A stretch of 30,042 nucleotides of DNA from the IMG/VR virus record IMGVR_UViG_2711768048_000007. One strand, given 5' to 3'. Position 1 is the first letter of the stretch, and every line of letters starts with the position of its first letter. This DNA comes from a virus. Lineage: Duplodnaviria; Heunggongvirae; Uroviricota; Caudoviricetes. Shown in pieces: positions 40 to 26,667 of this stretch. Below the pieces are notes generated by a model, which saw only the letters and a program-made list of their open reading frames with translations, was not told the origin of the DNA and searched no databases. Made by a program: the position numbers and the translations under genes.

Positions 40-402
40 GGGGCTGATTCTGGATTCGACGGGATTTGCGAAACCCAAGGTGCATGCCGAGGGGCGGTTG
101 GCCTCGTAAAAAGCCGCAAAAAATAGTCGCAAACGACGAAAACTACGCTTTAGCAGCTTAATAACCTGCTTAGAGCCCTCTCTCCCTAGCCTCCGCTCTT
201 AGGACGGGGATCAAGAGAGGTCAAACCCAAAAGAGATCGCGTGGAAGCCCTGCCTGGGGTTGAAGCGTTAAAACTTAATCAGGCTAGTTTGTTAGTGGCG
301 TGTCCGTCCGCAGCTGGCAAGCGAATGTAAAGACTGACTAAGCATGTAGTACCGAGGATGTAGGAATTTCGGACGCGGGTTCAACTCCCGCCAGCTCCAC
401 CA
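40..402 (+). ncRNA. ssrA: tmRNA (SsrA), complete
   Basis: Begins GGGGCTGATTCTGGATTCGACGGG and ends with the tRNA-like arm GGTTCAACTCCCGCCAGCTCCACCA; 363 nt, as expected for enterobacterial tmRNA. A TATACT -10-like hexamer lies upstream at 20..25. Confidence 0.95.
358..395. repeat. attL core: 38-bp direct repeat inside the ssrA 3' end
   Basis: ATGTAGGAATTTCGGACGCGGGTTCAACTCCCGCCAGC is repeated exactly at 26630..26667; the sequences diverge immediately after (TCCACCA here, CCACCA at the right copy). Confidence 0.85.
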
Positions 403-412
403 AATAAATCAA

Positions 413-445
413 GGGGTTACGTGAAAGCGTAGCCCTTTTTTCTTT
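413..445 (+). terminator. rho-independent terminator immediately after ssrA
   Basis: Stem GGGTTACG / CGTAGCCC (one G-U pair), loop TGAAAG, followed by TTTTTTCTTT, 11 nt after the tmRNA CCA end. Confidence 0.6.
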
Positions 446-510
446 AGTAGTGGCGGCAAAATGGCGGCAGACATTCAGTCAAGCCCAGTTGCTACTACAT
501 GCGATCGCAA

Positions 511-1284
511 TTACAACTTAAAGAGTTTCGCTTGCCCTGGATTAACAGCTTCGACGTAGTTTTTGACCCCTATTCTGTGCGGCTCATAATTGCTTGAATA
601 GAAATCAATCAGGAAGTCACTCATTTTCTGAGATGTGACTTTCATAACTCCCTTACTCAAAGTTAAATTAAACACGCTAATCTTTGACGATGGTGCCTGA
701 GTTTTACTCATGTTGGCTTGATAACCAGATTTACGCATTGCCACTAGTGCTTCGTCGTAAGCCGCTTGTAATTGGGCCAAATCGTTTGACGAGATGATCA
801 CATCATCCATAAACACACTTAGCTTGAGATCATGATGTTTGTTCAATCGGCGTAGTAAGCTACCAAAATAACTTTTATCTAAGCAGAGGGTTGCAAGTAT
901 TGGAGATTGAACAAAACCAAAAGGGAGGACATGCTTATGTGGACTATGGGACAAGTTTCTTACAGTTGAAAATGTTGAGATTTCCCGCGCTTGAGAATAG
1001 GTGAAGTAGCTCTTTAGATCACGGGTGATACGACTACGGCTCGTTGACTGAAAAAATTGTTTAATATCAACAACGGCAAAAAAATCACTTTTTAAGTGTA
1101 ATCTGGCAGCTTTAAGATGCCCACCAGTTCTTAGATGGTAAAAATAGAGTGGCGGAATCCACTTGTTTCTGACAGCCTGAAGTATCTTCCCTCCGACTTT
1201 ACGTGCCTCAACGCTTGGGACATAAACCCAAACCCCGGGCTTAATCTCAAATTTATCTTCCCACCTTTGAACTTCTATTGTCAT
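511..1284 (-). CDS. compact reverse transcriptase (257 aa), family unassigned
   Basis: The translation carries RT palm motifs in the correct order: FFAVVDIKQFF (motif A with Asp), PFGFVQSPILATL (motif B-like) and SVFMDDVIIS (catalytic xxDD, FMDD variant). True ATG start, with a TAA two codons upstream in frame. Confidence 0.75.
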   Translation of the reverse strand: MTIEVQRWEDKFEIKPGVWVYVPSVEARKVGGKILQAVRNKWIPPLYFYHLRTGGHLKAARLHLKSDFFAVVDIKQFFQSTSRSRITRDLKSYFTYSQAREISTFSTVRNLSHSPHKHVLPFGFVQSPILATLCLDKSYFGSLLRRLNKHHDLKLSVFMDDVIISSNDLAQLQAAYDEALVAMRKSGYQANMSKTQAPSSKISVFNLTLSKGVMKVTSQKMSDFLIDFYSSNYEPHRIGVKNYVEAVNPGQAKLFKL

Positions 1285-1426
1285 GAGTTAAATTGTTGTA
1301 GTTGAAGGCCATGTTAAGAACGGCGTAAACCGCACCAACTAAGCCAACAAACGCGGTTGCGCATTTGAGCATAGCGGTGATCAGTTCAACACGCGCCTTA
1401 ACTAAGCCAAGTTCGTTTGTATCCAT
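1253..1426 (-). CDS. small membrane peptide (about 57 aa, one hydrophobic helix), upstream of and overlapping the RT gene
   Basis: GGAGG lies 8 nt upstream of the second ATG (MDTNELG...). Hydrophobic stretch LITAMLKCATAFVGLVGAVYAVL. The 3' end overlaps the RT start by 32 bp, suggesting translational coupling. The first in-frame ATG is at 1441. Confidence 0.5.
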   Translation of the reverse strand: MDTNELGLVKARVELITAMLKCATAFVGLVGAVYAVLNMAFNYNNLTHDNRSSKVGR

Positions 1427-1687
1427 AACTTGTTCCTCCATAGATACCTGACGTCTCTTAGCGCAAGCGCATGGCCCTAACTAAATAAAAAATAACAACC
1501 AGTTAGCCCAGAAAGCTTAACAAGTCGGCGTCCGATTACATGGCAATCAGGTAATCGGTCCGCAGTCGCAAAGCGACAAACTACATATCTACGGAGTGGG
1601 GATAAATCCCCGCTAACGTCAGGCATTGTTAATTTAACCTCAACTTATAGAAAAGTATAGTTTTAAATCATGTAGTTATGTCGCCAT

Positions 1688-1906
1688 TTAAATCGGCAAA
1701 CCCACCTGTTTAAATTTATGAGGATGCGGCTGAACCGGATTTGACTCTTTTGGCGTTGCAATCGAACGAACAAAAGTTTCATGGGTAACAAAAGTATGGC
1801 TGCAGTTAATGTTCTGGCACTGGTTGTAACGCTCTTTGGTCAATGAAGATACCTGAAAACTGCTGCGAGTATGGGCGGCACTTCCACACAGTGGGCAAAT
1901 CATCAT
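1688..1906 (-). CDS. ogr: Ogr-type late-gene transcription activator (zinc finger)
   Basis: MMICPLCGSAAHTRSS...YNQCQNINCSHTF gives the C-x2-C ... C-x4-C pattern of P2 Ogr. The start is chosen to give about 72 aa; the longest ORF begins at 1939. Confidence 0.85.
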   Translation of the reverse strand: MMICPLCGSAAHTRSSFQVSSLTKERYNQCQNINCSHTFVTHETFVRSIATPKESNPVQPHPHKFKQVGLPI

Positions 1907-1996: not shown

Positions 1997-3097
1997 TCAT
2001 TCCATTTCGAGATCATCAACCTTCACTTCAAGCTCAAGACTGGTCGTAAAACCATTATCCGGGCTGACGGTATGTGTCAGAGTCGTAATGGTCCATTCCG
2101 CATCATCTATCGGCTGTTTAAAGCCACTGACTTTCACTGGCATTTCCGTGTAGAGATCTGCCCGCCCTTCCGCCAGTTGTAGCGAGAATGACGCAACGCC
2201 GCGTTGCAGGCGTTCCCACTGCATTTTCGCTGCCCGTTCAGCGTTGCTCCGGTTGGCATAAGTGCGATTAAGTACCAGCACGTTTTCATCCGTACCCACC
2301 AGGTAATCGCCCTGCTTCGCTTCCAGCTCTTTCTTCTGCTTCTTAGTCCTGCGCTTACGCTTCACCGTGGTGCTTTCTTTCTTCGCGGGTTCGCGGGTAT
2401 GCAACCAGCTGGCAATTATGCCCGTATAGGCTCCGCGATCTGCCAGGGTAAAGCGGTGACTGTCGCCGTCCTTACGTGTGATAGTGATCACCGGCAGTGG
2501 TTTACCGCTGGCACTTTTGCCCTGTCCCTGCCGGATGAATAACAGATTGCCATTTTTCACCGACGCAATAGCACCGTACTGGCGCGCCAGCCGCATCAGA
2601 AAACTACCGTCACTCTCATTAGTCTGGTCTATATGCTCCACGAGCTTATCCGACAGGTCTTTACCCAGTACCATCTTCAGCTTGTGCCGCGCGGCTATCT
2701 CCTTCACCACTTCCCCAATGGTGGTCTTGTGCCACGATTTTTCACGGCGGGTATTCAGCGTTTCCCGAAAATCAGCACTTCGCGCCCGGATAGTCAGGCG
2801 GTCCGGTGCGCCAGTGTGTTCAATCTCGTCCACCGTGAATGCCCCTTTCGGGAAAAGCGGCTGCCCCTTCCAGCCCAGCGCCAGCGTAATGACCGCACCA
2901 CGGCGCGGCAGCACGATTTTCCCGTCGGCATCGTCCAGCTCCAGATCAAGCTGGTCTGCTTCAAAGCCCCGATTGTCCGTCAGAGTCAGACTCATCAGGC
3001 GGTTGTCCAGCACAGTGGTGATATCCCTGCCTGCAATACTGATGCTGAATGCGGGAGTTTTGTTGCCTTTGTTAAGCAGTTCAGAGCTGAAATTCAC
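1997..3097 (-). CDS. D: tail protein D (late control gene D family)
   Basis: 366 aa, lying between U and ogr as in P2. GTG start overlaps the U stop (GTGA). Confidence 0.85.
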   Translation of the reverse strand: MNFSSELLNKGNKTPAFSISIAGRDITTVLDNRLMSLTLTDNRGFEADQLDLELDDADGKIVLPRRGAVITLALGWKGQPLFPKGAFTVDEIEHTGAPDRLTIRARSADFRETLNTRREKSWHKTTIGEVVKEIAARHKLKMVLGKDLSDKLVEHIDQTNESDGSFLMRLARQYGAIASVKNGNLLFIRQGQGKSASGKPLPVITITRKDGDSHRFTLADRGAYTGIIASWLHTREPAKKESTTVKRKRRTKKQKKELEAKQGDYLVGTDENVLVLNRTYANRSNAERAAKMQWERLQRGVASFSLQLAEGRADLYTEMPVKVSGFKQPIDDAEWTITTLTHTVSPDNGFTTSLELEVKVDDLEME

Positions 3098-3579
3098 GAC
3101 AGCAGCCCTCCCACCGTTTTACTGATATCGCTTAAGGCAGACGTTGCCGTGCCCTGCAGATTATTCAGTTGCGCACTGAGATCACCGAACATATCGGACA
3201 GGGATTCATCCACCCGTTTGAGCGACAGGGTGAACTCAATCCGGCGCGGCATACCGTCGCGGAAAAACTCCGTTTTAGTCTGATTCAGTCCCTCAATCAC
3301 ATACATGCCATAAATCGTGCCGCTGCCTTCAATCAGTGGCCATGCTTTCCCCTGTTCTGCCATCTGCTCCAGTGCCAGCAACGACAGCCTGCCACCTGTT
3401 ATCTCCGGCATAAGAACACCGGAAAGCGTCAGCATGTCGTTGTCCGGTCCCAGAAACTGCGTGGACGGACGTCGGTTTACCCGGCTGTTTGCCGCATGTC
3501 GCCAGCTGCGTTGATACTGCAGTTCCTGATACGGAACGGTGCGCAGCATAAACACGTACAATCCCAGCACCATCATCAT
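3094..3579 (-). CDS. U: tail protein U
   Basis: 161 aa. ATG overlaps the T stop (ATGA). Sits at the P2 gpU position between T and D. Confidence 0.8.
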   Translation of the reverse strand: MMMVLGLYVFMLRTVPYQELQYQRSWRHAANSRVNRRPSTQFLGPDNDMLTLSGVLMPEITGGRLSLLALEQMAEQGKAWPLIEGSGTIYGMYVIEGLNQTKTEFFRDGMPRRIEFTLSLKRVDESLSDMFGDLSAQLNNLQGTATSALSDISKTVGGLLS

Positions 3580-6500
3580 GCGTCGTATCCCCCCTGATCG
3601 CTGTAGTTACTCCTGGCTTTTGCCTTCAGCCTGCGTTCACGTTCATCAAGCTGGCGGGCCACCTCCCGCGCAATATCCTGCGCACTTTGTCCTGGCTGCA
3701 TCTGAATGATGATCTGCGTCGGTGCCTCAATCCGGTGAACGGGCGGCACAGTGGCTGCACGACTCACCATCGCTTCGCCGCCTTTCGCGGGAAGTGCCAA
3801 AGGATGCAACGGTGGAAGCTCTGCAGGCGCGGCAGCAACGCCCATCATTCCGGCAACAACGGCAGCCAGTGCAGCTGTATTTCTCCGGCTGGTCACATTT
3901 GCCGGGCCGTTAACAATTTCCGGCCCGTTTTCACCGACGATGCCAAACTGCCCGCGCGGGATATAGCCGCCGCTGTCATACATCCCCGCAAAGCCATATC
4001 CCCATGATGGAAAACCACCCGATGGCATCATCACTTTACCGTCTGCATTCACCGTCGCAGGTTGCTGACGCGTCACGCTTTCCGGCAGTTTCGCCTTTGC
4101 AGCTTCTTTACTGACAATGCCGAGTTTATCCAGCAACCAGGAAACACCGGATTTCAGGGAGTCCAGCGGATGCATGACCATATTCAGCCCCTCCGCCAGA
4201 GCCTCCCCGAATCGTCGCCCCATTGCCGCTGCGCTCTGCAGTTCAGCAGAGGTCGACTTAACAGGCGTCAGCAGATCAGTAAACCAACCCCACAACGCCT
4301 GCACTTTGTCGCCAATCCACTGAAACACAGGCTTAAGTGGTTCGAATGCAGCACTGATGGGACCTGCCGACGCTTTGAATCCTTCCACCACGCCACCGAG
4401 AAATGCGGTGATGGGTTGCCAGTATTTCCAGACAACCAGCGCCACACCCGCCAGTGCAGTAACCACAAGACCTATCGGACTGAGCAGAGCACCTAACAGA
4501 CCAGATATGGCATACAGGGCAACGCGCAGCATCGCCAGCGGACCGGATGCCAGTACTCGCAGCACCGCGCCTGCGGCAGACAGTCCACCGCGTAGTGCTG
4601 CCAGTGGATTCATAAACATCACAGCAACAGCACGTAAACCGGATAATCCAGACCGCAACAGTGCAACCGGCACACCTGCTACAGTTTTCAGGACATTCCC
4701 CGTCAGTGATGCCGTGCGGCGCAAAGACGACAACGGCGCAGTAAGTAAACCTGCGGCGTTGCCCGATGAAGCAAGCCCGCGTCGCAGCAGTGCCAGTGGA
4801 GCGCCAGCTAACCAGGACAACGCGCTGCTGGTTCGTGTTACTGCTGCCGTAACGGAAGGTAACGTTTTGATACCCAGCACAGAGAATCCCAGACGGATGA
4901 CTGCCAGCGGCCCCAGCACTGCAGCCAGCGCCACCGCTAAGGTGCCGAGGCCTACGGTAACCGCAGCCACAACAGCCGCTACTTTCATCAGTGTGCCTGT
5001 CAGTTCCGGGTTAGCTTCCACCCAGCGGCGCAACGCTCCCGTGATGCTTTTCACCGTGTACAGAATATCCATCAGCGGCTGGCGCAGCGTTTCGCCCAGG
5101 CTGCTGAAGGTGTTCTGCGCTCCGGTTTTGACCAGCAACCACTGAGCAGAAAGTGAGTCTTTGTTGATGTCGGATTCTTTCTGCATGGAACCGAGCGCAT
5201 CATTGCCCGCTGTCAGTTTTAGCTGGCGCTGCAGTTCCGGAAGGTTGTTTGCCAGTTTCGCCGCGTCATCACCAAACTCTTTACCAAACAACATGGTCAT
5301 GGCAGACAGACGCTTGTCCTGCGGCAGTGCGTTCACCTTCTCCAGCACACGCTGGATAGTTCCCATCGCATCCTTCGTCATCTGCTTTTCAATCACTTCA
5401 GGATTGAGTTTCAGCAGATTCATCCCTTCAAAGAAACTCTTGCTTTGCATGGTGGCAATGGACAATTCACGCACCATCGCGTTTGCTGCACTGGCTGCAA
5501 CCTCCGGCGCAGCGCCCAGTGTCAGAAAGGTGGAACCCAGTGCCGCCGCTTTACGATAATCCAGACGGTCAGCCACACCGCCCAGACGTTGCATCACATC
5601 AATGATGTCCGCCCCTTTCGACATGGCGTTATCATCCAGATAGTTCAGCGCATCGCCGAGCTGTTCAATATTGCGGGTAGGTATTTTGTAGAGCTGGGCG
5701 ATTTTCCCCAGACTTTCTGACAGTTCATCCGCTGGCAGCTCAAAGGCTGTTGCCGCCTTTGCTGCCGTACTGGCGAAGGCCAGCAGGTCACGTTTCTGGT
5801 CTTCCCAGCTGTCGTCAGGGTTTGCGACGTTCATGCGCGCACCACCTTCAACCAGTGCAGCGAAGTCCACCGCACCGTTTTCCATCGGCAACTGTTCGCT
5901 GGCAGCCTTGATGGCATCCTGCATTTCATAAAAACGTGCAGTGCGGTTGCCATTATCGTCACGCAGACCATTGACCTGCTTTGCCACACCTTTCATGGCA
6001 TCTTCCATGCTGGTATAGCTTTTTACTGCCGCCATCACTGGCGCACCCATTGCCAGCCCTGCAGCCGTGGTGGTGGCTCCGGCACCTGCAATACGATCAC
6101 GCACCTCCAGCGAACGGGCATAACTGGCACGCGCTGCATTCATCCTGCGCTGAGCTTCCCCCAGTCGCTTCAGCCGCGCCTCCTGTTTCGAAAGTTCCTG
6201 GTTATAACGTGATGTTTCACGGGCTAAACGGGCAGTTGCTCCCGCATCGTCTTTCGCAGAAATTCCCGCCCGGTACAGTTCAGCACGCACAAGCGCCGTC
6301 TGCTGCTGCAGTTTTTTCTGGCGTTCTTCCAGGCGCTGAACAGCCAGCCGTTGACGGCCCAGAGCAACAACCTGACGTTGCGAAGGCGGCCCCATCGCTC
6401 CCAGTTCCTGACTGAGCAAATTTGCACGCTGGCGGGCATAGTTCAGCCTGTCGCCTAATTTCTGATTTTCTGCCTGCAGCTTTCGGAAGCTGTCCAGACT

Positions 6501-6653
6501 GCTCCCGGCCTGATCAAGCTGCTTTATTGCATCGCGGGATTTTTTGACAGCAGCAGCCAGTTCTCTTGAACTGGCCTGCGCAGATCGAAATGGGCGGGTG
6601 AGCTTGTCAACCGCATTAAGAATGACCTGCAGACGCAGGTTGTTATCACTCAT
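3576..6653 (-). CDS. T: tail tape measure protein
   Basis: 1025 aa, with an N-terminal coiled-coil region rich in Q/R/E/L/A and long Ala/Gly/Leu-rich hydrophobic repeats typical of tape measure proteins. Position matches P2 gpT. Confidence 0.9.
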   Translation of the reverse strand: MSDNNLRLQVILNAVDKLTRPFRSAQASSRELAAAVKKSRDAIKQLDQAGSSLDSFRKLQAENQKLGDRLNYARQRANLLSQELGAMGPPSQRQVVALGRQRLAVQRLEERQKKLQQQTALVRAELYRAGISAKDDAGATARLARETSRYNQELSKQEARLKRLGEAQRRMNAARASYARSLEVRDRIAGAGATTTAAGLAMGAPVMAAVKSYTSMEDAMKGVAKQVNGLRDDNGNRTARFYEMQDAIKAASEQLPMENGAVDFAALVEGGARMNVANPDDSWEDQKRDLLAFASTAAKAATAFELPADELSESLGKIAQLYKIPTRNIEQLGDALNYLDDNAMSKGADIIDVMQRLGGVADRLDYRKAAALGSTFLTLGAAPEVAASAANAMVRELSIATMQSKSFFEGMNLLKLNPEVIEKQMTKDAMGTIQRVLEKVNALPQDKRLSAMTMLFGKEFGDDAAKLANNLPELQRQLKLTAGNDALGSMQKESDINKDSLSAQWLLVKTGAQNTFSSLGETLRQPLMDILYTVKSITGALRRWVEANPELTGTLMKVAAVVAAVTVGLGTLAVALAAVLGPLAVIRLGFSVLGIKTLPSVTAAVTRTSSALSWLAGAPLALLRRGLASSGNAAGLLTAPLSSLRRTASLTGNVLKTVAGVPVALLRSGLSGLRAVAVMFMNPLAALRGGLSAAGAVLRVLASGPLAMLRVALYAISGLLGALLSPIGLVVTALAGVALVVWKYWQPITAFLGGVVEGFKASAGPISAAFEPLKPVFQWIGDKVQALWGWFTDLLTPVKSTSAELQSAAAMGRRFGEALAEGLNMVMHPLDSLKSGVSWLLDKLGIVSKEAAKAKLPESVTRQQPATVNADGKVMMPSGGFPSWGYGFAGMYDSGGYIPRGQFGIVGENGPEIVNGPANVTSRRNTAALAAVVAGMMGVAAAPAELPPLHPLALPAKGGEAMVSRAATVPPVHRIEAPTQIIIQMQPGQSAQDIAREVARQLDERERRLKAKARSNYSDQGGYDA

Positions 6654-6779
6654 CGTTGGCCCCGCTTCTCTGAATCGCTTTATACCGCCATTCCAGCACT
6701 TCGGTCAGCGGCATAACGTCAGTAACGGATGGCGGCCAGTGAAAAATGGTGGCGATATCTGCCACCAGATCGTCAACCG

Positions 6780-7082
6780 TCAGGCTGTCGGTAAACCGGC
6801 AAGCACCGACTTCTTCAACAAAAAAGTGACAACCTCAACCGACATGGCAGTGAGATCTGCCGGGTCCATCTCTGCAATTTCCTGTGCAGTCAGTGCCGGA
6901 CTGGAGATGCGGGGGATCACGGTCATCATCGCGTTTACATCCATATCCATAATGGCCTGCAGGCGTGTACCGCGCAGCGCACCGGACTGCGGTTTACGCA
7001 GCACAATTTCGGTGATTTCTGTTTTACCGCGCTTGATGGGGGTATCCAGTTGAATGGTCTTTTCAGTCTGCTTATCGCTCAT
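6780..7082 (-). CDS. E: tail assembly chaperone E; E+E' is made by a -1 frameshift
   Basis: 100-aa ORF directly upstream of T. It contains the slippery heptamer TTTTTTG (minus strand; plus-strand CAAAAAA at 6819..6825) 13 codons before its stop, as in P2 E/E'. Confidence 0.8.
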   Translation of the reverse strand: MSDKQTEKTIQLDTPIKRGKTEITEIVLRKPQSGALRGTRLQAIMDMDVNAMMTVIPRISSPALTAQEIAEMDPADLTAMSVEVVTFLLKKSVLAGLPTA

Positions 7083-18011: not shown

Positions 18012-18021
18012 AAAAGTCACC

Positions 18022-20778: not shown

Positions 20779-21632
20779 GCACGCACTCCGTACACGGCAG
20801 AACTATCCACGCCACGCGAAGGATCAATTCCCACCCAGCAGCGCGCCCCGGAAACAGCGATGATTTCTGTTGCAGATTTACTCTCACCAGCTGCTACGCC
20901 GATGCTGCGTTTTGCCTTGATGTAGTGGTGAGTAAAATTGCGATACAGCGAACGGATCAGGGATGTGTCACTGTTAGAAACAATGACCGGATGTCCTTCT
21001 GATGACCGATGTTCAAGAACGGATGCCAGGTGATACTGGTCATCTTCAGTGAAGCCGTCAGTGTGATAACCGGAAAACGTACCGTCATAAGGCGGATCGC
21101 AATACACCACATCCCCCACCTGCAGCATCGCCAGCGTTTCATCAAAGCTGGCGCAGATAAACGTTGCTCGCTGGGCTTTCTCTGCAAATGCGCGAATTTC
21201 TTTTTCAGGGAAATACGGATTTTTATAATTACCGTATGGAATGTTGAAATGCCCGCTCTTGTTATAACGACATAACCCACGGTAACCGTGACGATTGAGA
21301 TACAGGAAATATACCGCTTTCATGAAATCAGTAATTTCAGTTGAGTAATTAAACTCCTGCCTTATGTTGTAATAAGTCACCTCCCTGTTTGCGTCCTCAA
21401 ATAAAGCTCTGGCACGAGATATAAACGCCTCACAATCAGCAGCAACCTTTTTATAGAGGTTGATTAAATCAGGATTAATATCCGCAACAAGATAGCTGGG
21501 GTAATCCGTCTCCATCATCACTGCACAGGAACCCGCGAAAGGTTCAACCAGTCGCGGGCCAGCAGGAAGATGCTTTTTCAGTTCGGACATTATGGCGGTT
21601 TTATTTCCCGCCCATTTCAGGATGGTGCTCAT
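20775..21632 (-). CDS. dam: DNA adenine methyltransferase (Dam family)
   Basis: N-terminal [11 protein letters not shown] and a DPPY catalytic motif. GGAGGTG Shine-Dalgarno before the ATG at 21632; the longest ORF begins with TTG at 21692. Confidence 0.85.
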
Positions 21633-21856
21633 ACAGCACCTCCGTTGTAATGTTTGCCTTTCAGCTCTGCGATTTCCTGACAGGTAATGCAAAGCTGCAC
21701 ACCCGGTATGGCACGACGGCGTGCTGGCGGAATTGGCGCTTCACACTCAACGCAAAGCACGCGGGACACGCCCGGCGTTTTGGCACGGGCAGCACGGATA
21801 TGGCGCTGGCGTTCTTCTTCAACGCGCTGCTGTACGAGATCCATTGCATCAGCCAT
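21629..21856 (-). CDS. TraR/DksA-type C4 zinc-finger protein
   Basis: 75 aa with CVECEAPIP...CITCQ (Cx2C-N17-Cx2C); stop/start overlaps with both neighbouring genes. Confidence 0.7.
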   Translation of the reverse strand: MADAMDLVQQRVEEERQRHIRAARAKTPGVSRVLCVECEAPIPPARRRAIPGVQLCITCQEIAELKGKHYNGGAV

Positions 21857-22089
21857 TAGTGGATCTCCTGCGCTTCGTTCTGGATTGCTTCAGCAGTCAC
21901 ACGCAGCAGTTCTGCCGCTTCCACGTGGTTTAGCTGACGGGATGAGATATGACACGCCAGGCTATCAAGGCGAGCTGCCATTGCTTCAGCCCTTGCCCGG
22001 CGTTCTTCCAGACGAGCCTCTGTCAGTAAAATATTAAGCCCTGCGTCATCCGGTCCGGTTTTAGTCGTGAGGGTTTCAATATTACGCAT
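21856..22089 (-). CDS. hypothetical early protein
   Basis: About 77 aa from the ATG with an AGGAGA Shine-Dalgarno (MRNIETLTTK...); stop overlaps the downstream start. Confidence 0.5.
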   Translation of the reverse strand: MRNIETLTTKTGPDDAGLNILLTEARLEERRARAEAMAARLDSLACHISSRQLNHVEAAELLRVTAEAIQNEAQEIH

Positions 22090-22156
22090 AATCAATTCTC
22101 CTGAATTTAGATAAAGGGATGCCCGGCGGGTTTACGCCATTAATTTCATTAGTTGG

Positions 22157-22498
22157 TTAATTCGGCATGGTTAGCCGTCTGGGAAATAAGCTCACCACTG
22201 CACGAAAATGATTCATTGCTTTAATCAGCTCCCGCTTTTCGTCAGTGGTCAGCTCATTAATGCTGATGCTATGACGTTCAGCTGGAATTTTTGCCATAAA
22301 GAATATGGCAGCCAGTGCCCGTTTATTTTGTTCGCTATTAATATCGCGTGGATCACGCATATCTTTAATAAACCGCTCAAGCTCTGACTCAATATTCAGA
22401 CCAAAAACTTTTGCCCTTAACTCCGCAATGTGATTAAGTCCATTCAGGCGTTCACCGGGGCCTAATGGAACAGTCGCCGCAGCGCCATTAATTGCCAT
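22157..22498 (-). CDS. hypothetical early protein
   Basis: 113-aa ORF with an ATG start in the early operon between the cII side and A. Confidence 0.45.
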   Translation of the reverse strand: MAINGAAATVPLGPGERLNGLNHIAELRAKVFGLNIESELERFIKDMRDPRDINSEQNKRALAAIFFMAKIPAERHSISINELTTDEKRELIKAMNHFRAVVSLFPRRLTMPN

Positions 22499-22520
22499 AA
22501 TTCATATTCCCAAAACGCAA

Positions 22521-22745
22521 CTATCGTTCTTTGTTCTTACGGTAACGTTCAAGAGGAGATACATTTTTTCGTATCGTCTCTTTAACCTGCTCTCCCCGTA
22601 AAAACATCCCATCCCTTAGCGTGAAAAAGTAACTGCCATCGCCCGACAACGACGGATAACAACAGAGCAAATCATCTTCAGGTACTGAATAACTCTCCCC
22701 TCTGTAACGAAACTGATAAACCACTTCACTTTCCGCTGCATACAT
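22521..22745 (-). CDS. hypothetical early protein
   Basis: 74 aa; a GGAGAAAG Shine-Dalgarno precedes the ATG, and the upstream frame is closed by TGA ten codons before it. Confidence 0.45.
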   Translation of the reverse strand: MYAAESEVVYQFRYRGESYSVPEDDLLCCYPSLSGDGSYFFTLRDGMFLRGEQVKETIRKNVSPLERYRKNKER

Positions 22746-22912
22746 TTTGACTTTCTCCGTTTCCCCGTGGTCAATTCAGACAGCAATTCATCTTGTGAAC
22801 GGCACGGATGCCAGCGTTTACCATCCTCACCCATGATCCAGCCGTGACCGTAGTGCATTGCCGGACTTTGTTTTACCAGCAGCGATGCAAATGATGGTTC
22901 TTTCGTCAGCAT
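22616..22912 (-). CDS. hypothetical early protein immediately downstream of cII; 3' end doubtful
   Basis: AGGTG Shine-Dalgarno with an ATG 7 nt after the cII stop (MLTKEPSF...). The last about 40 codons overlap the next gene in another frame and look like low-complexity read-through. Confidence 0.35.
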   Translation of the reverse strand: MLTKEPSFASLLVKQSPAMHYGHGWIMGEDGKRWHPCRSQDELLSELTTGKRRKSKCMQRKVKWFISFVTEGRVIQYLKMICSVVIRRCRAMAVTFSR

Positions 22913-22919
22913 AAGCACC

Positions 22920-23429
22920 TCACAGCAATCCGAATGAAGCACCGAGGCCAGTTACGGTATCAACTGCACTTGCCATCGCAGGATTAGCCTGTAAACGGGC
23001 CTGCAATGAAACAGCAGCCAGCGCCATCAGTCGTGTAACAGAGTTAATGCTGCTGATCGCATCACGACGGCCTGCACTGGTTTTTACATCGCCAGAAACC
23101 GCACCAGCCGCGACACGCCCTATCTCTGCAGTTGCACTCATGACGTAATGCGGCAGTTTCTCTTTTGCCACCTCATTAATCGGAACACATGGCAGACAAT
23201 GAATCTGTGCCAGAAAACCATCTACCAGCGTTGAATCTTCAGTCAGATCGGTAAGTAGCCAGATATCTCGTGCAGTGAGCTGATGCGGTTGTTCCGGGTT
23301 CAGCTTGTTACGCAGCGTCTGGACGTTCATTCCCGCGAGTTCTGCTAGCTTCGCCATATTGTGACGTAGTGCAAAAGCTCTACAGGCTTCATCAAAATGC
23401 GGATGTTTGGAAATCTTGTAATCAAACAT
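22920..23429 (-). CDS. cII: CII-like lysogeny establishment regulator (phage 186 type)
   Basis: 169 aa. MFDYKISKHPHFDEACRAFALRHNMAKLAELAGMNVQTLRNKLNPEQPH...LAQIHCLPCVP closely resembles 186 CII as I recall it; HTH present. Confidence 0.85.
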   Translation of the reverse strand: MFDYKISKHPHFDEACRAFALRHNMAKLAELAGMNVQTLRNKLNPEQPHQLTARDIWLLTDLTEDSTLVDGFLAQIHCLPCVPINEVAKEKLPHYVMSATAEIGRVAAGAVSGDVKTSAGRRDAISSINSVTRLMALAAVSLQARLQANPAMASAVDTVTGLGASFGLL

Positions 23430-23461
23430 GGTGCTCCCTTAGAAAGTTCCCATAATTGAAA

Positions 23462-23704
23462 TTACTTACCAACAATGACGCGGAAGTTGGAATGACCGAG
23501 GGATTCACGGACCTGATCAGTTTTGTACATTAGATAACGCAGGCTTACGCGGCCTTTGTTTTTTTCTTTCTTGACCATGTACTTAGCGAGTTGACCATGG
23601 TGAATTTTTTGGTAAACAGACCCGCGGGAAATCCCTTCCCATTCAGCGAATTCAGCAGGCGTAGCCATCTCTTTTGGTACACGAATTGAAATATCTGTGC
23701 TCAT
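23462..23704 (-). CDS. apl: Apl/Cox-like excisionase and repressor
   Basis: 80-aa basic HTH protein, first gene of the lytic transcript and divergent from cI (the 186 Apl position). Confidence 0.7.
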   Translation of the reverse strand: MSTDISIRVPKEMATPAEFAEWEGISRGSVYQKIHHGQLAKYMVKKEKNKGRVSLRYLMYKTDQVRESLGHSNFRVIVGK

Positions 23705-23806
23705 AGTGCAGTATCTCTTGGTTTAAGCTCGTTTTATGATGTTTAACCCCAACTTCTAAACTCTCATATTAGAAGTTAAATACAAAAATACGATCTCGTT
23801 ATTGGA
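23705..23806. promoter_or_regulatory. cI/apl switch region with a candidate operator palindrome
   Basis: AT-rich divergent intergenic region; inverted repeat AACTTCTAA-N9-TTAGAAGTT at 23751..23777. Confidence 0.5.
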
Positions 23807-24457
23807 TTGTCAAATGGAGAGTTCATCTTGAAGATTAATACAGGTGCAAATACGGGAGGGAGAGAGACCATCAAAAGGCTGATGACAGCCTATGGTTTCA
23901 ACACTCAGATAGCGTTGGTTGAACACCTCGAAGCATCAAAAAGCACCATGGCAAACAGGATGTTACGTGATAGCTTCCCTGCTGACTGGGTTATTCAATG
24001 TGCCCTTGAAACAGGTATTTCTCTTCTTTGGCTGACAACGGGCCAAGGGGAAATGTATCCTCAAACAGAAGAAAAAAATAAGTTCAAAAACGAGAGTTCA
24101 CCTACAGTTCGCCCCCTTTCAAAGATAGTTATCCCATCAGTAAGGCAGGTAACCATTGAGAACGGAACTCTCGAAGAGATGGGGGATGTTTTCCTTGATC
24201 AGACTTTGATACCCGGAAAAGCCGAATATTGTTTGTACGTCAAAGCTAACGACGGCAATTACATTGTTGATACATCAACAAAACAGCTTAGTAACGGAAT
24301 TTGGCTCATAGACATCGACGGTATGAAAAACATCGTCAAAATTGCGCGCATACCTGGAAACAAAATAGTAGTTAACCAAGATGACACGTCATTTGAATGT
24401 TCTGTAGATGATGTGGAAGTCGTAGGACGTGCAGTCAAAGTAATCAAGAACCTCTAA
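23807..24457 (+). CDS. cI: CI-type immunity repressor (start uncertain)
   Basis: HTH region AYGFNTQIALVEHLEASKSTMANRM plus a C-terminal domain. The longest ORF starts with TTG at 23807; a TTG at 23828 has a GGAGAG Shine-Dalgarno and is a likely true start. Confidence 0.75.
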   Translation: MSNGEFILKINTGANTGGRETIKRLMTAYGFNTQIALVEHLEASKSTMANRMLRDSFPADWVIQCALETGISLLWLTTGQGEMYPQTEEKNKFKNESSPTVRPLSKIVIPSVRQVTIENGTLEEMGDVFLDQTLIPGKAEYCLYVKANDGNYIVDTSTKQLSNGIWLIDIDGMKNIVKIARIPGNKIVVNQDDTSFECSVDDVEVVGRAVKVIKNL

Positions 24458-24460
24458 CTT

Positions 24461-25477
24461 ATGACCATAAGAAAACAGCCGAACGGAAAATGGTTGTGTG
24501 AGTGCTATCCCAATGGACGCAATGGTAAGCGCGTGCGTAAGCAATTTGCTACCAAAGGCGAAGCCATTGCTTTTGAAAGCTTCACAATGGAAGAAGTGAA
24601 TAAAAAACCGTGGTTGGGTGAAAAGGATGATCGGCGACGCCTATCAGAATTAATTGAGCTTTGGTATTCCCTGTATGGTCAGACACTCGCAGACCCCAAG
24701 CGCCTCATGGCGAAACTTAGAATTATCTGTAATGGTCTAGGCGACCCCATCGCCTCAGAACTGACAGCCGGTGACTTTACGAAATACCGCGAAGCACGGT
24801 TAAAAGGTGACGTTCGTAACGAAGACGGCACACTAATGTCGCCAGTAAAACCACGCACGGTGAATCTTGAGCAACGTAACCTATCATCGGTTTTCGGCAC
24901 ATTGAAAAAACTAGGCCACTGGTCAGCACCAAATCCTCTCGCCGGGCTGCCAACATTTAAAATCGCTGAGGGGGAACTGGCGTTCCTGACCTCGGAAGAA
25001 ATTAAACGTCTGCTAGATGCCTGCGCTGATTCTCAAAACCCCAGTCTGCTTTTGATTGCAAAAATATGCCTGGCCACCGGCGCACGCTGGAGTGAAGCCG
25101 AAAACCTGCAGGGCCATCAGTTATCTAAATACCGCATCACTTATACCAAGACGAAGGGTAAGAAAAACCGCACCGTGCCGATATCTCAAGATCTGTATGA
25201 CGAACTCCCCAAGAACAGAGGGAAGCTATTCACCCCGTGCAGAAAAGCCTTTGAACGAGCAGTAAAGCGAGCTGGCATCGAGCTGCCAGAGGGCCAATGC
25301 ACTCACGTGCTACGTCATACATTCGCCAGCCATTTTATGATGAATGGCGGAAACATACTGGTTCTGCGCGATATTCTGGGCCATGCCGATATAAAAATGA
25401 CGATGATCTATTCTCATTTTTCACCAGAACACTTAGAAGATGCAGTAACTAAGAATCCTTTAAATTATATTGAGTGA
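24461..25477 (+). CDS. int: tyrosine integrase (P2 Int family)
   Basis: 338 aa; C-terminal catalytic region HVLRHTFASHFMMNGGNILVLRDILGHADIKMTMIYSHF with the catalytic Tyr. Lies next to attR. Confidence 0.9.
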   Translation: MTIRKQPNGKWLCECYPNGRNGKRVRKQFATKGEAIAFESFTMEEVNKKPWLGEKDDRRRLSELIELWYSLYGQTLADPKRLMAKLRIICNGLGDPIASELTAGDFTKYREARLKGDVRNEDGTLMSPVKPRTVNLEQRNLSSVFGTLKKLGHWSAPNPLAGLPTFKIAEGELAFLTSEEIKRLLDACADSQNPSLLLIAKICLATGARWSEAENLQGHQLSKYRITYTKTKGKKNRTVPISQDLYDELPKNRGKLFTPCRKAFERAVKRAGIELPEGQCTHVLRHTFASHFMMNGGNILVLRDILGHADIKMTMIYSHFSPEHLEDAVTKNPLNYIE

Positions 25478-25482
25478 AAATC

Positions 25483-26544
25483 ATGTTAAGTGATACTTGT
25501 TATACAGTGATTTATATTGCAGCAATCGTTTTATTAGTATTTATTACAATAGTAAAAAAATGGTACATGCTTGATAAAAGAAATTTATTTCGTCAGAAAT
25601 TATTTTGGATTTCAGTTTTAACACCTTTATTTTCCTTTATCTATTTTGGTTTTTTCACATGGTGGGGAAAAGAACCAGTACTCTCCGCACATGGCTATTC
25701 AAGATTTTACGAAATAAGCAAATTCCCTCTACTATTGCTAGCTAGTGCAGTTCCTTTGGCTTCGATCGTCAACAATATACATCGCACTATACAAACCGAA
25801 GCTCAGATCAACACCGCTGAAACGAAAAATGCAGTCGATAGATATTTAGCACATGAGAAAAACTTTATTGAGAAAACAAAGGAAATATTCGCCTACAATC
25901 TTCAAAGCGCGAGAGACTCAGATGGAAACCTCATTAAATTCAATGGCGAACCAAATATCACTTTGTTTACAGCAGATGAAATTAAAATTTCCAACCCATA
26001 TCTTTTATATACAAAAATATACAACAAATCAACTATAGAGACCACATCTAACTTCACCGCAAACCCTGATTTTTTAGTGCAATTAAAGGAGTACTTAAAC
26101 ACAATTAATAATACTCTGTCGGTTCAACACTCTATAGATGAATATAATCCATTAAGTTACATGATTCGACTTAACACTTTGTCATATAATACAGCCTCGT
26201 TATTAGACCTGATATGTACATCCCCCATATCTCATGTATACTGTTTGATAAAATATGATGGGTATCAATTAAAAACATTTACACTTGAAGAACAAGTATT
26301 CGCCGATATTTTAGAAATATCATATCTTCTATCAAGAAAACTAATTCGTTTGATATATAATGAAGATATACCACATTACGACAACATTTATAATTACTTA
26401 TATGTTGGTAAGTTGAGGTTTAAATTCAGAAAACACGCCAATTCTTTACAAGCATTTTCTTCGCAGGAATGGGCTGATTACGTTTCTGAAGCACTAACTC
26501 TAGTTCCTAACGAAGTTGGCGGCACTTTGGCGGCAGCGCATTAA
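25483..26544 (+). CDS. hypothetical polytopic membrane protein, very AT-rich cargo
   Basis: Three predicted helices (YTVIYIAAIVLLVFITIV, WISVLTPLFSFIYFGFFTWW, LLLLASAVPLASIVNNI) then an Asn/Tyr/Ile-rich domain of about 250 aa. GC content estimated by eye at about 30 percent, against roughly 50 percent for the backbone. Overlaps the int stop; a GTG at 25474 is an alternative start. Confidence 0.65.
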   Translation: MLSDTCYTVIYIAAIVLLVFITIVKKWYMLDKRNLFRQKLFWISVLTPLFSFIYFGFFTWWGKEPVLSAHGYSRFYEISKFPLLLLASAVPLASIVNNIHRTIQTEAQINTAETKNAVDRYLAHEKNFIEKTKEIFAYNLQSARDSDGNLIKFNGEPNITLFTADEIKISNPYLLYTKIYNKSTIETTSNFTANPDFLVQLKEYLNTINNTLSVQHSIDEYNPLSYMIRLNTLSYNTASLLDLICTSPISHVYCLIKYDGYQLKTFTLEEQVFADILEISYLLSRKLIRLIYNEDIPHYDNIYNYLYVGKLRFKFRKHANSLQAFSSQEWADYVSEALTLVPNEVGGTLAAAH

Positions 26545-26629
26545 AAATTAGTAAAATGGACAAACACTACATAACAATAACGCACTGTTTTTAAATGCAA
26601 ACTACTGTTTTTGCTATAGTAAAAATGGT

Positions 26630-26667
26630 ATGTAGGAATTTCGGACGCGGGTTCAACTCCCGCCAGC
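26630..26667. repeat. attR core: duplicated 3' fragment of ssrA
   Basis: Identical 38 bp to 358..395, followed by CCACCA; this is a displaced partial ssrA 3' end, not a gene. Confidence 0.85.

Follow-up and report, generated by a model that had tools for sequence, protein, structure and literature searches.

Accessory gene hotspots of P2-type prophages at GpA-GpQ and int-att have already been described (PMC13586616; PMC9122126). In the same studies they are seen as reservoirs of defence genes, and the possible domestication of defective elements is considered (PMC9122126; PMC13586616). Among anti-phage systems, the locus studied here is compared with the type VI retrons (bioRxiv 10.1101/2025.10.22.683967; 10.64898/2026.04.27.721009) and with RAZR/PD-T7-4; the biology of RAZR is given in PMC13017515. 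The arrangement of our locus is of this known kind, and a retron-like module is its sole unusual part.

The window, i.e. the whole stretch of 30,042 nucleotides that was analysed, contains at 396-26667 a P2/186-type, Cartapus-like Peduoviridae prophage, located in the 3' end of the E. coli ssrA gene. The integration target, the tmRNA gene, was found by ARAGORN and Rfam (RF00023, 295.8 bits) at 40..402 on the plus strand. Its 3' end is duplicated as a 38-bp perfect direct repeat (repeat search, family D3, 100% identity), bounding the prophage on both sides, with the attL core at 358..395 and the attR core at 26630..26667. These positions agree exactly with the prophage limits given in the first-pass annotation. 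The attP region of phage Cartapus matched window positions 358-475 at 95.8%. Within this attP-derived arm, downstream of the rebuilt ssrA 3' end, lies a phage-supplied intrinsic terminator (411..438, plus strand), a 12-bp stem followed by a T-run. Overall, Cartapus covered 92% of the element at 95.8% identity, and an intact E. coli prophage at ssrA, C2, covered its first 25 kb completely at 98.2%. We consider it very probable that the element is an ssrA-integrated Peduoviridae prophage with two crippling deletions and four phage-borne, exchangeable cargo modules, which predate the apparently recent deletions.

Both deletions were located by blastn against the intact C2 prophage (L001). At the first junction (8762..8764), the L001 alignment breaks off at 14764 and resumes at 17428, the two parts overlapping by 3 bp, and 2,663 bp were lost, comprising the FI N-terminus, the invertase, the tail-fibre assembly genes and the H C-terminus. 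At the second (9758..9761), it breaks off at 18427 and resumes at 23582, here overlapping by 4 bp. The 5,154 bp lost here held most of I, the genes J, W, V, S, R, lysC, lysB, a lysA-like gene, K, Y and X, and the L C-terminus, their absence being verified by tblastn. In total, 15 genes present in C2 are missing: the invertase, three tail-fibre/assembly genes, J, W, V, S, R, lysC, lysB, the lysA-like gene, K, Y and X. Four more, FI, H, I and L, are truncated, as revealed by tblastn with the C2 proteins. The tail sheath FI' (7662..8765, minus strand, phrog_23) lacks its first 23 codons and aligns to C2 residues 24-390 only. The tail-fibre remnant H' (8761..9702, minus strand) keeps residues 1-314 of 500 and runs out of frame into FI, giving a 325-aa ORF. 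Only the last 20 aa of I remain, and the head-completion protein L' (9713..10186, minus strand) is a chimera of 157 aa, with native residues 1-143 of 154 followed by a 14-aa foreign tail. What was lost thus comprises the lysis cassette and the baseplate, the functions of tail completion, the C-terminus of the tail fibre and its assembly genes, and the invertase, which bears out the earlier claim that lysis and baseplate functions had been lost. With the two deletions, the element therefore has no means, by itself, to make infectious particles or to lyse the cell.

Each junction shows 3-4 bp of microhomology in the blastn comparison with C2, and no flanking repeats were found at either by repeat search and blastn; both deletions are the product of illegitimate recombination. 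An assembly artefact in a prophage that is really intact is extremely improbable. The H'-I' piece left between the junctions is very close to 1,000 bp in length, many genomes match it at 100% identity, and tail-fibre regions are rich in repeats and invertible, as an artefact would have it. However, several assemblies made independently (NCBI, Logan, ENA) contain the same chimeric ORFs, the contigs reaching 266 kb, and microhomology in place of flanking repeats also speaks for genuine deletions.

Apart from the truncated genes, all those shared with the intact C2 prophage (31/31) are full length, including head, terminase and tail genes. The late-gene activator ogr (1688..1906, minus strand; Pfam Ogr_Delta, E 6.7e-22), at the edge of the phage backbone, encodes a protein 100% identical to its C2 counterpart. 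The tail genes D, U, T (tape measure), E', E and FII (1997..7652, minus strand) are intact, their proteins being 98.8-100% identical to those of C2, as are the head and packaging genes M, N, O (minus strand), P and Q (plus strand) at 10282..15787, with full-length C2 matches at 99.3-100%. The early and regulatory backbone (17444..24457) was likewise intact, as judged by Pfam and comparison with C2. It encodes an 86-aa hypothetical protein, DinI, a 62-aa hypothetical protein, replication protein A, Dam methylase, TraR/DksA, DUF2732, DUF5347, Fil, CII, Apl/Cox and CI; this set is common to Cartapus, C2, WEC and 2020N21-246, save that 2020N21-246 lacks the 86-aa hypothetical protein. The tyrosine integrase (24461..25477, plus strand) is intact too, with residues 1-337 of 339 aligning to C2 Int at 92%.

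With int, Apl/Cox, replication protein A, cos, terminase and capsid retained, the element could excise, replicate and package its DNA, and a co-resident P2-like phage might supply tails and lysis, as for a satellite. Among E. coli genomes with a match to the tail-gene stretch, the median number of such places per genome is three, and the head/packaging module, cos, and the integration and replication genes are all intact. Nevertheless, we regard such a helper-dependent mobile element as improbable. The head-completion protein lacks its 11 C-terminal residues, the N-terminus of the sheath is missing, the DNA directly upstream of FI, where the late promoter PF is located in P2, was deleted, and carriers of the element are few.

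The cargo consists of four independently exchangeable accessory modules at the three variable sites of the lineage: a reverse transcriptase (RT) module between ogr and attL, two genes flanking cos, and a membrane protein gene between int and attR. At least four modules at three sites had been proposed before, and four are confirmed, with independent reassortment among C2, 2020N21-246, WEC, Cartapus and AR_0017. Their atypical composition, also proposed, is borne out. The GC content is 0.42 for the RT module, 0.42 for the DUF4145 gene, 0.38 for the gene of a 203-aa protein and 0.33 for that of the 353-aa membrane protein, compared with 0.51 for the whole element and 0.555-0.56 for the late genes. 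However, low GC alone is no marker of cargo, because ogr (0.44) and CI (0.42), which belong to the backbone, have values just as low. The modules are scarce in complete E. coli genomes (28, 25 and 5 of 5,426, the attL arm being found in 771), but each of the four relatives compared (C2, 2020N21-246, WEC and Cartapus) carried the DUF4145 gene, which is therefore common in the sub-lineage. A promoter/terminator analysis of the window assigned a promoter to none of the four modules.

Intact prophages, too, carry the RT module and both genes beside cos, the latter pair being found in the Cartapus phage record as well. These genes were therefore brought in by phage as morons and not picked up by the host. 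The cargo as a whole came with the phage and is older than the deletions. The suggestion of the first-pass annotation that the host keeps the prophage mainly for its cargo is not supported: the same cargo is found in intact prophages, and the deleted form is rare. Its further suggestion of a possible defence island stands insofar as two of the four modules resemble anti-phage systems, while host retention is unsupported. A domesticated island, in which the host keeps the crippled prophage for protective cargo and loss of lysis was selected because it spares the cost of induction, is unlikely. It would fit the precise loss of the lysis cassette, with CI immunity, int and all four cargo modules intact, and the defence-like character of two modules; the possibility has been raised for defective elements (PMC13586616). 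The identical deleted form is present on 7-12 draft contigs (the exact chimeric H' ORF on 7-10, the exact L' chimera on 12), so it has persisted for some time. On the other hand, neither junction was found in 5,426 complete E. coli genomes, in IMG/VR or in the JGI metagenomes. Head, terminase and tail genes useless to a host carry no frameshift or stop codon, and over the segments retained the identity to intact prophages, which share the cargo, is 97-100%. That all 31 other C2-shared genes are full length speaks for deletions of recent date and against a long period of domestication. The defect seems to be young and limited to a small clone.

The RT module resembles a minimal retron. The compact 257-aa retron-clade RT (511..1284, minus strand; Pfam RVT_1, E 2e-21) has the active-site motif FMDD, and its homologues are uniformly ~255 aa. 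In a comparison of its family profile with the PDB, the top 13 matches were all retron RTs, with Ec86 first at 7.5e-12. The best PADLOC model was RT_VI, a weak match (63 bits) with I-B, IX and II-A scoring nearly equal. All scores against the NCBIfam retron models were far under the cutoffs, Rfam recognised no retron RNA, and the retron 'VTG' position is VFN in this family. Next to the RT, a gene on the same strand (1253..1426; WP_000380485 in relatives) overlaps the RT start by 32 nt. It encodes a 57-aa small hydrophobic protein (SP), a putative toxic effector, with a hydrophobic segment at residues 15-41 and the C-terminal motif NMAFNY. An SP-type ORF abuts the RT in 57/80 loci, compared with 1/80, 0/64 and 0/67 in controls. 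No third conserved gene was found beside the RT among the RT loci.

A retron-like ncRNA is predicted at 1435..1626 on the minus strand (MFE -67.7 kcal/mol, z = -3.57). Reading 5' to 3' on this strand, it comprises a1 (1626-1616), TAGC (1615-1612), the stem-loop SL1 (1611-1598), b1 (1596-1585), SL2 (1577-1565), a variable stem (1562-1526), a GCGC hairpin (1470-1461), a2 (1454-1444) and b2 (1447-1436). In a 35-locus MAFFT alignment, 9/10 a1/a2 pairs covary; 90% of the alignment cells pair, compared with 27-48% with a slid partner, and the observed score was reached in 0/500 shuffles. TAG is invariant directly after a1, and the a1-TAG...a2 arrangement is present in 61/77 loci vs 11/77 and 7/67 in controls. 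For b1/b2, the score was 17.3 in native loci and 11.5 across loci, and was equalled in 0/2000 permutations. Since b2 overlaps the Shine-Dalgarno sequence GGAGG (1439-1435), this second covarying helix is predicted to bury the Shine-Dalgarno sequence of SP. Published type VI retrons follow the same logic (bioRxiv 10.1101/2025.10.22.683967; 10.64898/2026.04.27.721009), and the build, ncRNA-SP-RT, is theirs as well, except that their HTH gene is absent here. By analogy with the type VI retrons Vpa2 and Sen3, SP would be a toxin restrained by RNA structure. Upon infection, reverse transcription would remodel the RNA, SP would be translated and the infection would be aborted.

Alternatively, the cassette might be no anti-phage retron at all, but a selfish addiction module of the toxin type by which the prophage is stabilised, or an RT of another class (Abi-P2, a DRT or the remnant of a group II intron, for example), which we judge unlikely. 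A small hydrophobic protein under tight translational control and lacking an HTH partner does recall type I toxin-antitoxin systems, and PADLOC and NCBIfam left the RT unclassified. However, in every profile comparison retron RTs scored above group II intron RTs and retron models above DRT models, and the covarying a1/TAG/a2 geometry is that of retron priming. The cassette is kept across Proteobacteria with the RT active site intact, and a simple type I toxin-antitoxin would need no RT. Within the element, this HTH-less family with retron features is the lead of interest; the literature yielded no paper describing it, as judged by descriptions and not by sequence search.

Left of cos lies the gene (15796..16494, minus strand) of a 232-aa protein with a Cys4 zinc ribbon and a HEPN-like DUF4145 domain (Pfam, 30.3 bits, cutoff 23.1). 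It is convergent with the portal gene Q, the two ending 8 nt apart. The protein matched the PADLOC model PD-T7-4 at 1.2e-6, and all 22 homologues tested matched PD-T7-4 only (best 3.6e-11); no sequence match was found in the PDB. Its domain layout is that of RAZR, although the match is distant and weak. C8, C11, C46, C49 and H189 are invariant in the family. The catalytic arginine of RAZR lies 8 residues before the histidine; here, by spacing and not by alignment, its place is taken by K181, invariant or nearly so. The protein resembles a RAZR-type RNase, as a distant relative of RAZR/PD-T7-4, and by analogy may be an RNase turned on by ring-shaped phage proteins.

The cos region (16594..16754) was located by the ends of the Cartapus record, which map to 16655/16656. 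The annotated 59-bp cos of Cartapus corresponds to window positions 16597-16655, and 1,279 E. coli genomes share the conserved 160-bp block 16594-16754. To its right, a 203-aa protein (16784..17395, minus strand; phrog_26391, function unknown) has one predicted N-terminal membrane helix (hydrophobic segment at residues 7-25) and is 99.5% identical to Cartapus gp47. Strain 2020N21-246 has an HNH endonuclease in its place. PHROG, profile and homologue searches returned no informative homology for this module or for the 353-aa one.

The 353-aa protein at int-attR (25483..26544, plus strand; phrog_17460, function unknown) has three predicted N-terminal membrane helices (hydrophobic segments at 9-27, 43-61 and 81-99) and a C-terminal region of ~250 aa. 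Its homologues were confined to Enterobacterales, and no Pfam domain was found in its close relatives. The gene starts 5 nt past the int stop codon and is therefore probably co-transcribed with cI-int in lysogens. Of 5,426 complete E. coli genomes, 5 have it at this position. The comparison of ssrA-integrated relatives that the first-pass annotation had proposed showed that their int-att slot holds named defence genes, encoding a dCTP deaminase, GAPS1 or a RES protein. Through guilt by association only, a role in defence or exclusion may be suggested for the 203-aa and 353-aa proteins.

The limits of the prophage were examined by a repeat search of the window. The ssrA (tmRNA) gene was located at 40–402 on the plus strand by both ARAGORN and Rfam, and the 38 bases at its tRNA-like end (358–395) are perfectly repeated at 26630–26667. 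This agrees exactly with the element bounds of 396–26667 proposed in the first-pass annotation. Directly past the 38-bp repeat, the two att copies differ (390–402 compared with 26662–26674). The attL side reads on as TCCACCA, which gives a functional ssrA end supplied by the phage, with a terminator at 411–438; the attR side reads on as CCACCAATC. Right of attR lies a gene for an AIDA/Ag43-type autotransporter adhesin (26834–30027), which a relative carries under the name ypjA/ehaD. A C-terminal piece of an IS3-family transposase (29761–30027) truncates this gene, so that the N-terminus and signal peptide of the adhesin are missing.

The gene set between the repeats is of the P2/186 type: ogr, D, U, T, E/E', FII, FI, a tail-fibre fragment, L, M, N, O, P, Q, A, Dam, CII, Apl/Cox, CI and int. 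The P2-type order is present as well, with Q and P divergent from O-N-M-L, then FI-FII-E-T-U-D-ogr, and cos beside Q. An intact int is present and the att repeats bound the element, as for Peduoviridae prophages. Among phage records, Escherichia phage Cartapus (NC_070909; Peduoviridae, Elveevirus) is nearest, with 92% coverage and 95.8% identity. The nearest chromosomal prophage, intact and likewise at ssrA, is that of E. coli C2 (NZ_CP010117; 100% coverage over the first 25 kb, 98.2% identity). Both relatives share with the window a 96–98% identical backbone, the same attP core (the Cartapus attP corresponds to window 358–475) and the genes for a DUF4145 protein and a 203-aa protein around cos; C2 also has an identical reverse transcriptase (RT) cassette. 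Unlike the window, both still have the lysis, baseplate and tail-fibre genes, 7.8 kb in all. Cartapus further differs in having a RES protein and a 160-aa gene around attP instead of a membrane protein and the RT cassette, and C2 in having two different genes after int. Another small variable patch, in the region from int to replication gene A, is found at 22499–22756, where 258 bp between DUF5347 and CII are without counterpart in Cartapus. This stretch extends Fil, which has 66 aa in Cartapus, to 98 aa, and an overlapping 74-aa ORF (22521–22745) matched no family.

Alignment of the window to the intact C2 prophage by blastn gave three colinear blocks separated by two gaps. The first deletion (junction 8762–8764, 3-bp overlap) removed 2,663 bp, and the second (junction 9758–9761, 4-bp overlap) removed 5,154 bp. 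A gene-level inventory was made by tblastn with all 50 annotated proteins of the C2 prophage, two of which are C2's own cargo after int; the window has the gene of a 353-aa protein in their place. Fifteen backbone proteins are missing: the invertase, three tail-fibre/assembly proteins, J, W, V, S, R, LysC, LysB, the LysA-like protein, the K lysozyme, the Y holin and X. Four more are truncated, with FI lacking 23 residues, H reduced to residues 1–314 of 500, I to its last 20 residues and L to 143 of 154. No truncation was found in the remaining 29 proteins (backbone and shared cargo), most of which are 98–100% identical to C2, with Dam, Fil, CII, CI and Int at 92–97%. The element thus lacks the complete virion and lysis gene set of a functional phage. 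The earlier claim that lysis and baseplate functions were lost is correct, as the blastn blocks and the tblastn inventory show, and can now be stated gene by gene. The piece between the two junctions, with the remains of H and I (8762–9761), is almost exactly 1,000 bp long and 100% identical to C2 and to many other genomes, whereas identity is 99.0% and 97.1% in the blocks on either side, a pattern suggestive of local mosaicism in the tail-fibre region.

None of 5,426 complete E. coli genomes matched a query across both junctions in a single piece, and exact 32-mers over each junction were absent from IMG/VR and the JGI metagenomes. The chimeric ORFs created by the deletions were found in NCBI, Logan and ENA, on contigs of up to 266 kb: the 325-aa H' chimera on 7–10 contigs and the 157-aa L' chimera on 12. 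Since both chimeras occur on other contigs, the deletions are real and not an artefact of assembly. The same 7–12 contigs rule out that the deletions are private to one genome; they are limited to a small group of isolates.

It had also been proposed that the host keeps the prophage mainly for its cargo. For a long-domesticated remnant, one would look for inactivating lesions shared by a diversified host lineage, and for decay of phage genes useless to the host beside preserved cargo. Neither was found. The lesions occur in none of the 5,426 complete genomes and on 7–12 draft contigs, and the head, packaging, tail, replication and regulatory genes outside the deletions are full length. Undamaged head, terminase and tail genes, together with the few carriers, argue for a recent loss and against long domestication, and the proposal was not supported. 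More likely, on the available evidence, the deletion is recent and clone-restricted and arose in a phage whose cargo genes were there before it. The element is in this respect a dated snapshot of a phage freshly without lysis and tail genes and with its cargo intact, and such a snapshot is starting material for the question of domestication left open by recent work.

Four cargo modules sit at three variable sites of the backbone, with one module on either side of cos. Between Q and cos, the DUF4145 gene is present in the window, in the prophages of E. coli C2, 2020N21-246 and WEC, and in phage Cartapus. The interval between cos and DinI holds the 203-aa gene in the window, C2, WEC and Cartapus, and an HNH endonuclease gene in 2020N21-246. 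At the junction of att and ogr, the RT cassette is found in the window, C2 and 2020N21-246, and a 160-aa gene in WEC and Cartapus. Between int and att, each element has its own occupant: the 353-aa membrane protein in the window, two hypothetical genes in C2, an anti-phage dCTP deaminase in 2020N21-246, GAPS1 in WEC and the RES protein in Cartapus. Occupants at att-ogr, cos-DinI and int-att thus differ between C2, 2020N21-246, WEC and Cartapus on near-identical backbones, and the four modules reassort independently. The modules are rare in the 5,426 complete E. coli genomes, with the RT cassette in 28, the cos pair in 25 and the membrane protein in 5; by contrast, the attL arm is common to 771 of these genomes. 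Dam methyltransferase (20775–21632; PADLOC oMTase, E 7.8e-112, orphan), DinI (17778–18011) and the cell-division inhibitor Fil (22619–22912) are accessory-type genes, but they were kept in all relatives examined and therefore belong to the lineage backbone and not to the swappable cargo.

The position of cos was taken from the Cartapus record and from conservation. By the Cartapus annotation it corresponds to 16597–16655, the linear Cartapus record ends at window 16655/16656, and a 160-bp block (16594–16754) is common to 1,279 E. coli genomes. A search with a P2 cos 19-mer gave no match. Because the Cartapus ends and cos map to these positions, the DUF4145 gene (15796–16494) and the 203-aa gene (16784–17395) lie left and right of cos, as had been read from the sequence alone. 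We also considered that the two could form a single system split by cos. This was rejected, as 2020N21-246 carries the DUF4145 gene with the HNH endonuclease instead of the 203-aa gene.

The cargo had also been called compositionally atypical. Its GC content is indeed low (0.33–0.42, compared with 0.555–0.56 in the late genes), but ogr (0.44) and CI (0.42) are equally low, so that composition alone does not identify cargo. The idea of defence-type cargo at moron sites is upheld by the relatives, whose int-att slots hold the dCTP deaminase, GAPS1 and RES. PADLOC gave RT_VI and PD-T7-4 matches for the occupants of the window, both weak, and no match for the 203-aa protein, the 353-aa protein or the small protein of the RT cassette. 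Promoter and terminator scans showed no excess over the shuffled expectation, and therefore no promoter was assigned to any module.

Defence hotspots of P2-like prophages in E. coli have been described in the A-Q region around cos and between int and att (Rousset et al. 2022, PMC9122126; Moura de Sousa et al. 2026, PMC13586616). The window resembles these hotspots in having accessory genes with fast turnover in both places, and its relatives do so in having known systems (dCTP deaminase, GAPS1, RES) in the slots. It differs in that the ogr-att junction is also used, a site not named in the available text of the two papers, in that lysis and tail genes are deleted, and in that its occupants are mostly missed by PADLOC and NCBIfam. 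The overall pattern of P2-family phages as swap-platforms for anti-phage genes is already known (PMC9122126, PMC13586616), and the window adds the ogr-att junction as a candidate further hotspot.

The DUF4145 protein scores above the Pfam cutoff for this domain. Its four cysteines (C8, C11, C46 and C49) and H189, in a DGNDGAH motif, are invariant in 22 homologues and also in a set of 38. All 22 homologues matched the PADLOC model PD-T7-4 and no other model, with partial coverage and E values from 1e-6 to 4e-11 (best 3.6e-11). PDB sequence and profile searches with the protein gave no meaningful match, and a single-sequence AlphaFold2 model reached a pLDDT of 39.5. PD-T7-4 is RAZR, a zinc-finger HEPN RNase that forms an assembly on rings of phage portal protein or Gp77; the RNA cleavage that follows aborts the infection (Nature 2026, PMC13017515). 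Like RAZR, the DUF4145 protein is encoded by a single gene of ~210–230 codons and combines an N-terminal Cys4 zinc ribbon with a C-terminal DUF4145/HEPN-like domain. Unlike RAZR, it has a lysine (Lys181) for the arginine eight residues before the catalytic histidine, judged by spacing only; the sequence match is distant, and the gene stands beside the phage's own portal gene. With moderate confidence, the DUF4145 protein is a probable relative of RAZR that would share its general mode of action. A RAZR-type sensor beside the portal gene poses the question of how the phage's own portal avoids triggering it during lytic growth. The gene ends 8 nt from the stop of Q, to which it is convergent (15787–15796).

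Both the 203-aa and the 353-aa proteins have N-terminal hydrophobic helices. There is one such helix in the 203-aa protein, for which Cartapus gp47 and a PHROG family of uncharacterised proteins were the only matches. The 353-aa protein contains three, and its gene starts 5 nt past int; in strain AR_0017 it is likewise found after int. Its homologues are restricted to Enterobacterales, and none of its close relatives has a Pfam domain. The membrane domain (window 25501–25872) is 49% identical to the N-terminus of the 375-aa protein in the same slot of the intact C2 prophage (positions 39301–40428 of that locus), and the two proteins are otherwise unrelated. Many database homologues cover only the first 50–60% of the protein. 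The family looks like a conserved membrane anchor with swappable C-terminal domains. By association, a location downstream of cI-int, in a slot with known defence genes in relatives, suggests an exclusion or defence role expressed in the lysogen.

The RT cassette occupies the ogr-attL junction on the minus strand and consists of a non-coding RNA (ncRNA, 1435–1626), a small protein (SP, 1253–1426) and the RT (511–1284). The RT has 257 aa and matches Pfam RVT_1 (E 2e-21). It belongs to a family of ~255-aa proteins in Gamma-, Beta- and Alphaproteobacteria, for which 72 clusters and 80 species-level loci were obtained. A single-sequence PDB search with the RT found no match; with the family profile, the top 13 matches were all retron RTs, including Ec86, Eco8, Kva2, Ec78, Ec83 and Ec67. 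The retron RT chains matched in the PDB have 310–596 aa, and the family members, with ~255 aa, fall below all of them in length. All best PADLOC and NCBIfam matches of the family were retron RT models as well, those of NCBIfam all below cutoffs. The best PADLOC model was RT_VI, that of the type VI subclade (clade 3), but marginally so (best E 1.9e-24, compared with 3.7e-22 for I-B and 2.3e-21 for IX, with II-A also close). Based on these searches, the RT is placed in the retron clade. Abi-P2, DRT and group II intron RTs were considered as alternatives and ruled out by the model rankings of PADLOC, the PDB profile search and NCBIfam.

Retron RTs carry the signature motifs NAxxH and VTG. Invariant A59 and H63 were found in the family, H63 aligning with the NAxxH histidine of Ec86; the VTG position reads VFN, of which F205 and N206 are invariant. 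The active site (codons 158–161) is FMDD in the window RT and its closest allele, and YxDD in 20 of 22 aligned homologues (mostly YMDD, some YVDD). As the identical FMDD protein represents 198 member sequences, this variant is probably functional. In the phage collection, the RT matched only 13 Klebsiella prophage records, at 99.2–99.6% identity.

The 190 nt upstream of the small ORF, on the coding strand, form a stable fold (z = −3.57), and an Rfam scan of the window returned no retron RNA family. The ncRNA begins with the arm a1 (ATGCCTGACGT), followed by TAGC and a GGGG...CCCC hairpin. Next come the arm b1, a GTCGC...GCGAC hairpin and a variable long stem, and then TTAGTTAGG and a GCGC...GCGC hairpin. 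It closes with the arms a2 (ACGTCAGGTAT) and b2, before the ATG of the small protein. Covariation of a1/a2 was assessed in a MAFFT alignment of 35 loci with both arms in register. Changes on both sides were found in nine of the ten pairs, 90% of cells pair compared with 27–48% for a slid partner, and none of 500 shuffles reached the score. Past a1, T13 is conserved to at least 90% in this alignment, and A14 and G15 show no variation at all; this A and G match the branching-G context of Ec86 (UUAGCG). The arrangement a1-TAG...a2 was found at 61 of 77 loci, against 11 of 77 and 7 of 67 in controls. The cassette therefore has the ncRNA expected upstream of a retron RT, with inverted repeats a1/a2 at its limits and a conserved G directly 3' of a1.

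A second long-range helix joins b1 (1585–1596), just past the first hairpin, to b2 (1436–1447), the purine-rich Shine-Dalgarno region of the small ORF. Native loci scored 17.3 for this pairing and cross-locus pairs 11.5, and none of 2000 permutations scored as high as the native loci. Given the order a1, b1, a2, b2, the two helices cross, as alternative conformers or as a pseudoknot. One more long-range inverted repeat (minus strand, 1476–1484 and 1397–1411) has one arm in the 3' part of the ncRNA and the other in the 5' or middle part of the SP coding region, and it resembles the IR1-IR2 'hybrid RNA' of type VI retrons. Its ncRNA arm is TTAGTTAGG in the window and TGTTGGTT in other loci, and the repeat was also seen at seven homologous loci (L002, L007, L013, L014, L021, L045 and L051). 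In alphaproteobacterial loci, a hairpin of 83–85 nt extends over the coding sequence of SP as far as the start of the RT.

SP is a protein of 57 aa that combines a hydrophobic helix with an NMAFNY motif. An SP ORF stands beside the RT at 57 of the 80 loci, compared with at most one of 80 in controls. A spurious call of a 57–62-aa ORF over the ncRNA is countered by this conservation of ORF and NY motif, and also by the end of the ncRNA upstream of the SP Shine-Dalgarno. No third ORF, including any HTH gene, is conserved within ~2 kb of the RT across the 80 loci, which rules out a third gene elsewhere in the neighbourhood. The window has no room for one, because the SP and RT genes overlap at the start of the RT, and only 108 nt separate the RT stop from attL. 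Identical SP sequences occur on at least 1,000 Klebsiella and Escherichia contigs, and close variants on hundreds of Salmonella contigs; the cassette family is carried by P2-like prophages through these three genera. Only at two of the 80 species-level loci do ogr and D adjoin the cassette, which is therefore a self-contained mobile unit. The family was not recognised by PADLOC (2023), NCBIfam (2026) or Rfam 15.

Type VI retrons are ncRNA-SP-HTH-RT operons, as described in two recent preprints (bioRxiv 10.1101/2025.10.22.683967 and 10.64898/2026.04.27.721009). In Retron-Vpa2, the SP toxin is encoded on a 'hybrid RNA' with a buried ribosome-binding site, and msDNA made upon infection derepresses its translation (preprint). 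In Retron-Sen3, an HTH antitoxin restrains SP, and the trigger is RecBCD inhibition (preprint). Some type VI retrons make no RT-DNA until triggered (preprint). The cassette resembles type VI retrons (Vpa2, Eco12, Sen3) in the order of ncRNA, small hydrophobic or helical protein and RT, in an SP ribosome-binding site buried in the ncRNA, in the long-range repeat reaching into the SP coding region, and in its top PADLOC model, which is RT_VI marginally and at a low score. It differs from type VI (Mestre cluster 2_1) in having no Cro/C1 HTH gene, either in the window or at the 80 homologous loci, in its RT of ~255 aa, and in its SP of 40–65 aa with an NY motif, compared with 75–79 aa in the Mestre clusters. 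Its control would also differ in being purely RNA-based.

We infer that SP would act as a toxin under such control, with the RNA switch as its sole brake. The covarying b1/b2 helix hides the SP ribosome-binding site. Since b1/b2 and the priming helix a1/a2 cross or are alternatives to each other, reverse transcription itself would license translation of the putative toxin. By analogy, the cassette would work like a type VI retron, most plausibly with a translational switch of the Vpa2 type. It was not filed as a type VI member, since the HTH gene is absent and the RT is only marginally nearest to the type VI model. An HTH gene is also missing from about 22% of the type VI entries in the catalogue (preprint), and the cassette may therefore be a type VI sub-lineage. 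The assignment that we put forward, tentatively and at a little under even chances, is an unclassified family of two-gene, HTH-less retrons made up of ncRNA, SP and RT. This HTH-less, retron-like family is the part of the element worth follow-up. If it is a working retron without HTH antitoxin, it would provide a minimal natural test of reverse transcription alone gating toxin translation, and also a very compact pair of RT and ncRNA for retron-based genome editing.

RT morons on P2/P4-family elements, as the cassette is, are also represented by phiR73 (Ec73), Orf570 of P2-EC30 (Abi-P2) and gp44 of Burkholderia phage KS5, and these RTs have been linked to phage exclusion. Unlike the window RT, they are larger, belong to other classes and are located at Z/fun or between A and Q. 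In the P2-like phage KS5, genes 44-45 encode a 339-aa retron-type RT and an overlapping 107-aa transcriptional regulator just past the portal gene Q (PMC3091744). By its make-up, this pair resembles a type VI-style retron with an HTH gene, located in the A-Q hotspot of a different P2 lineage.
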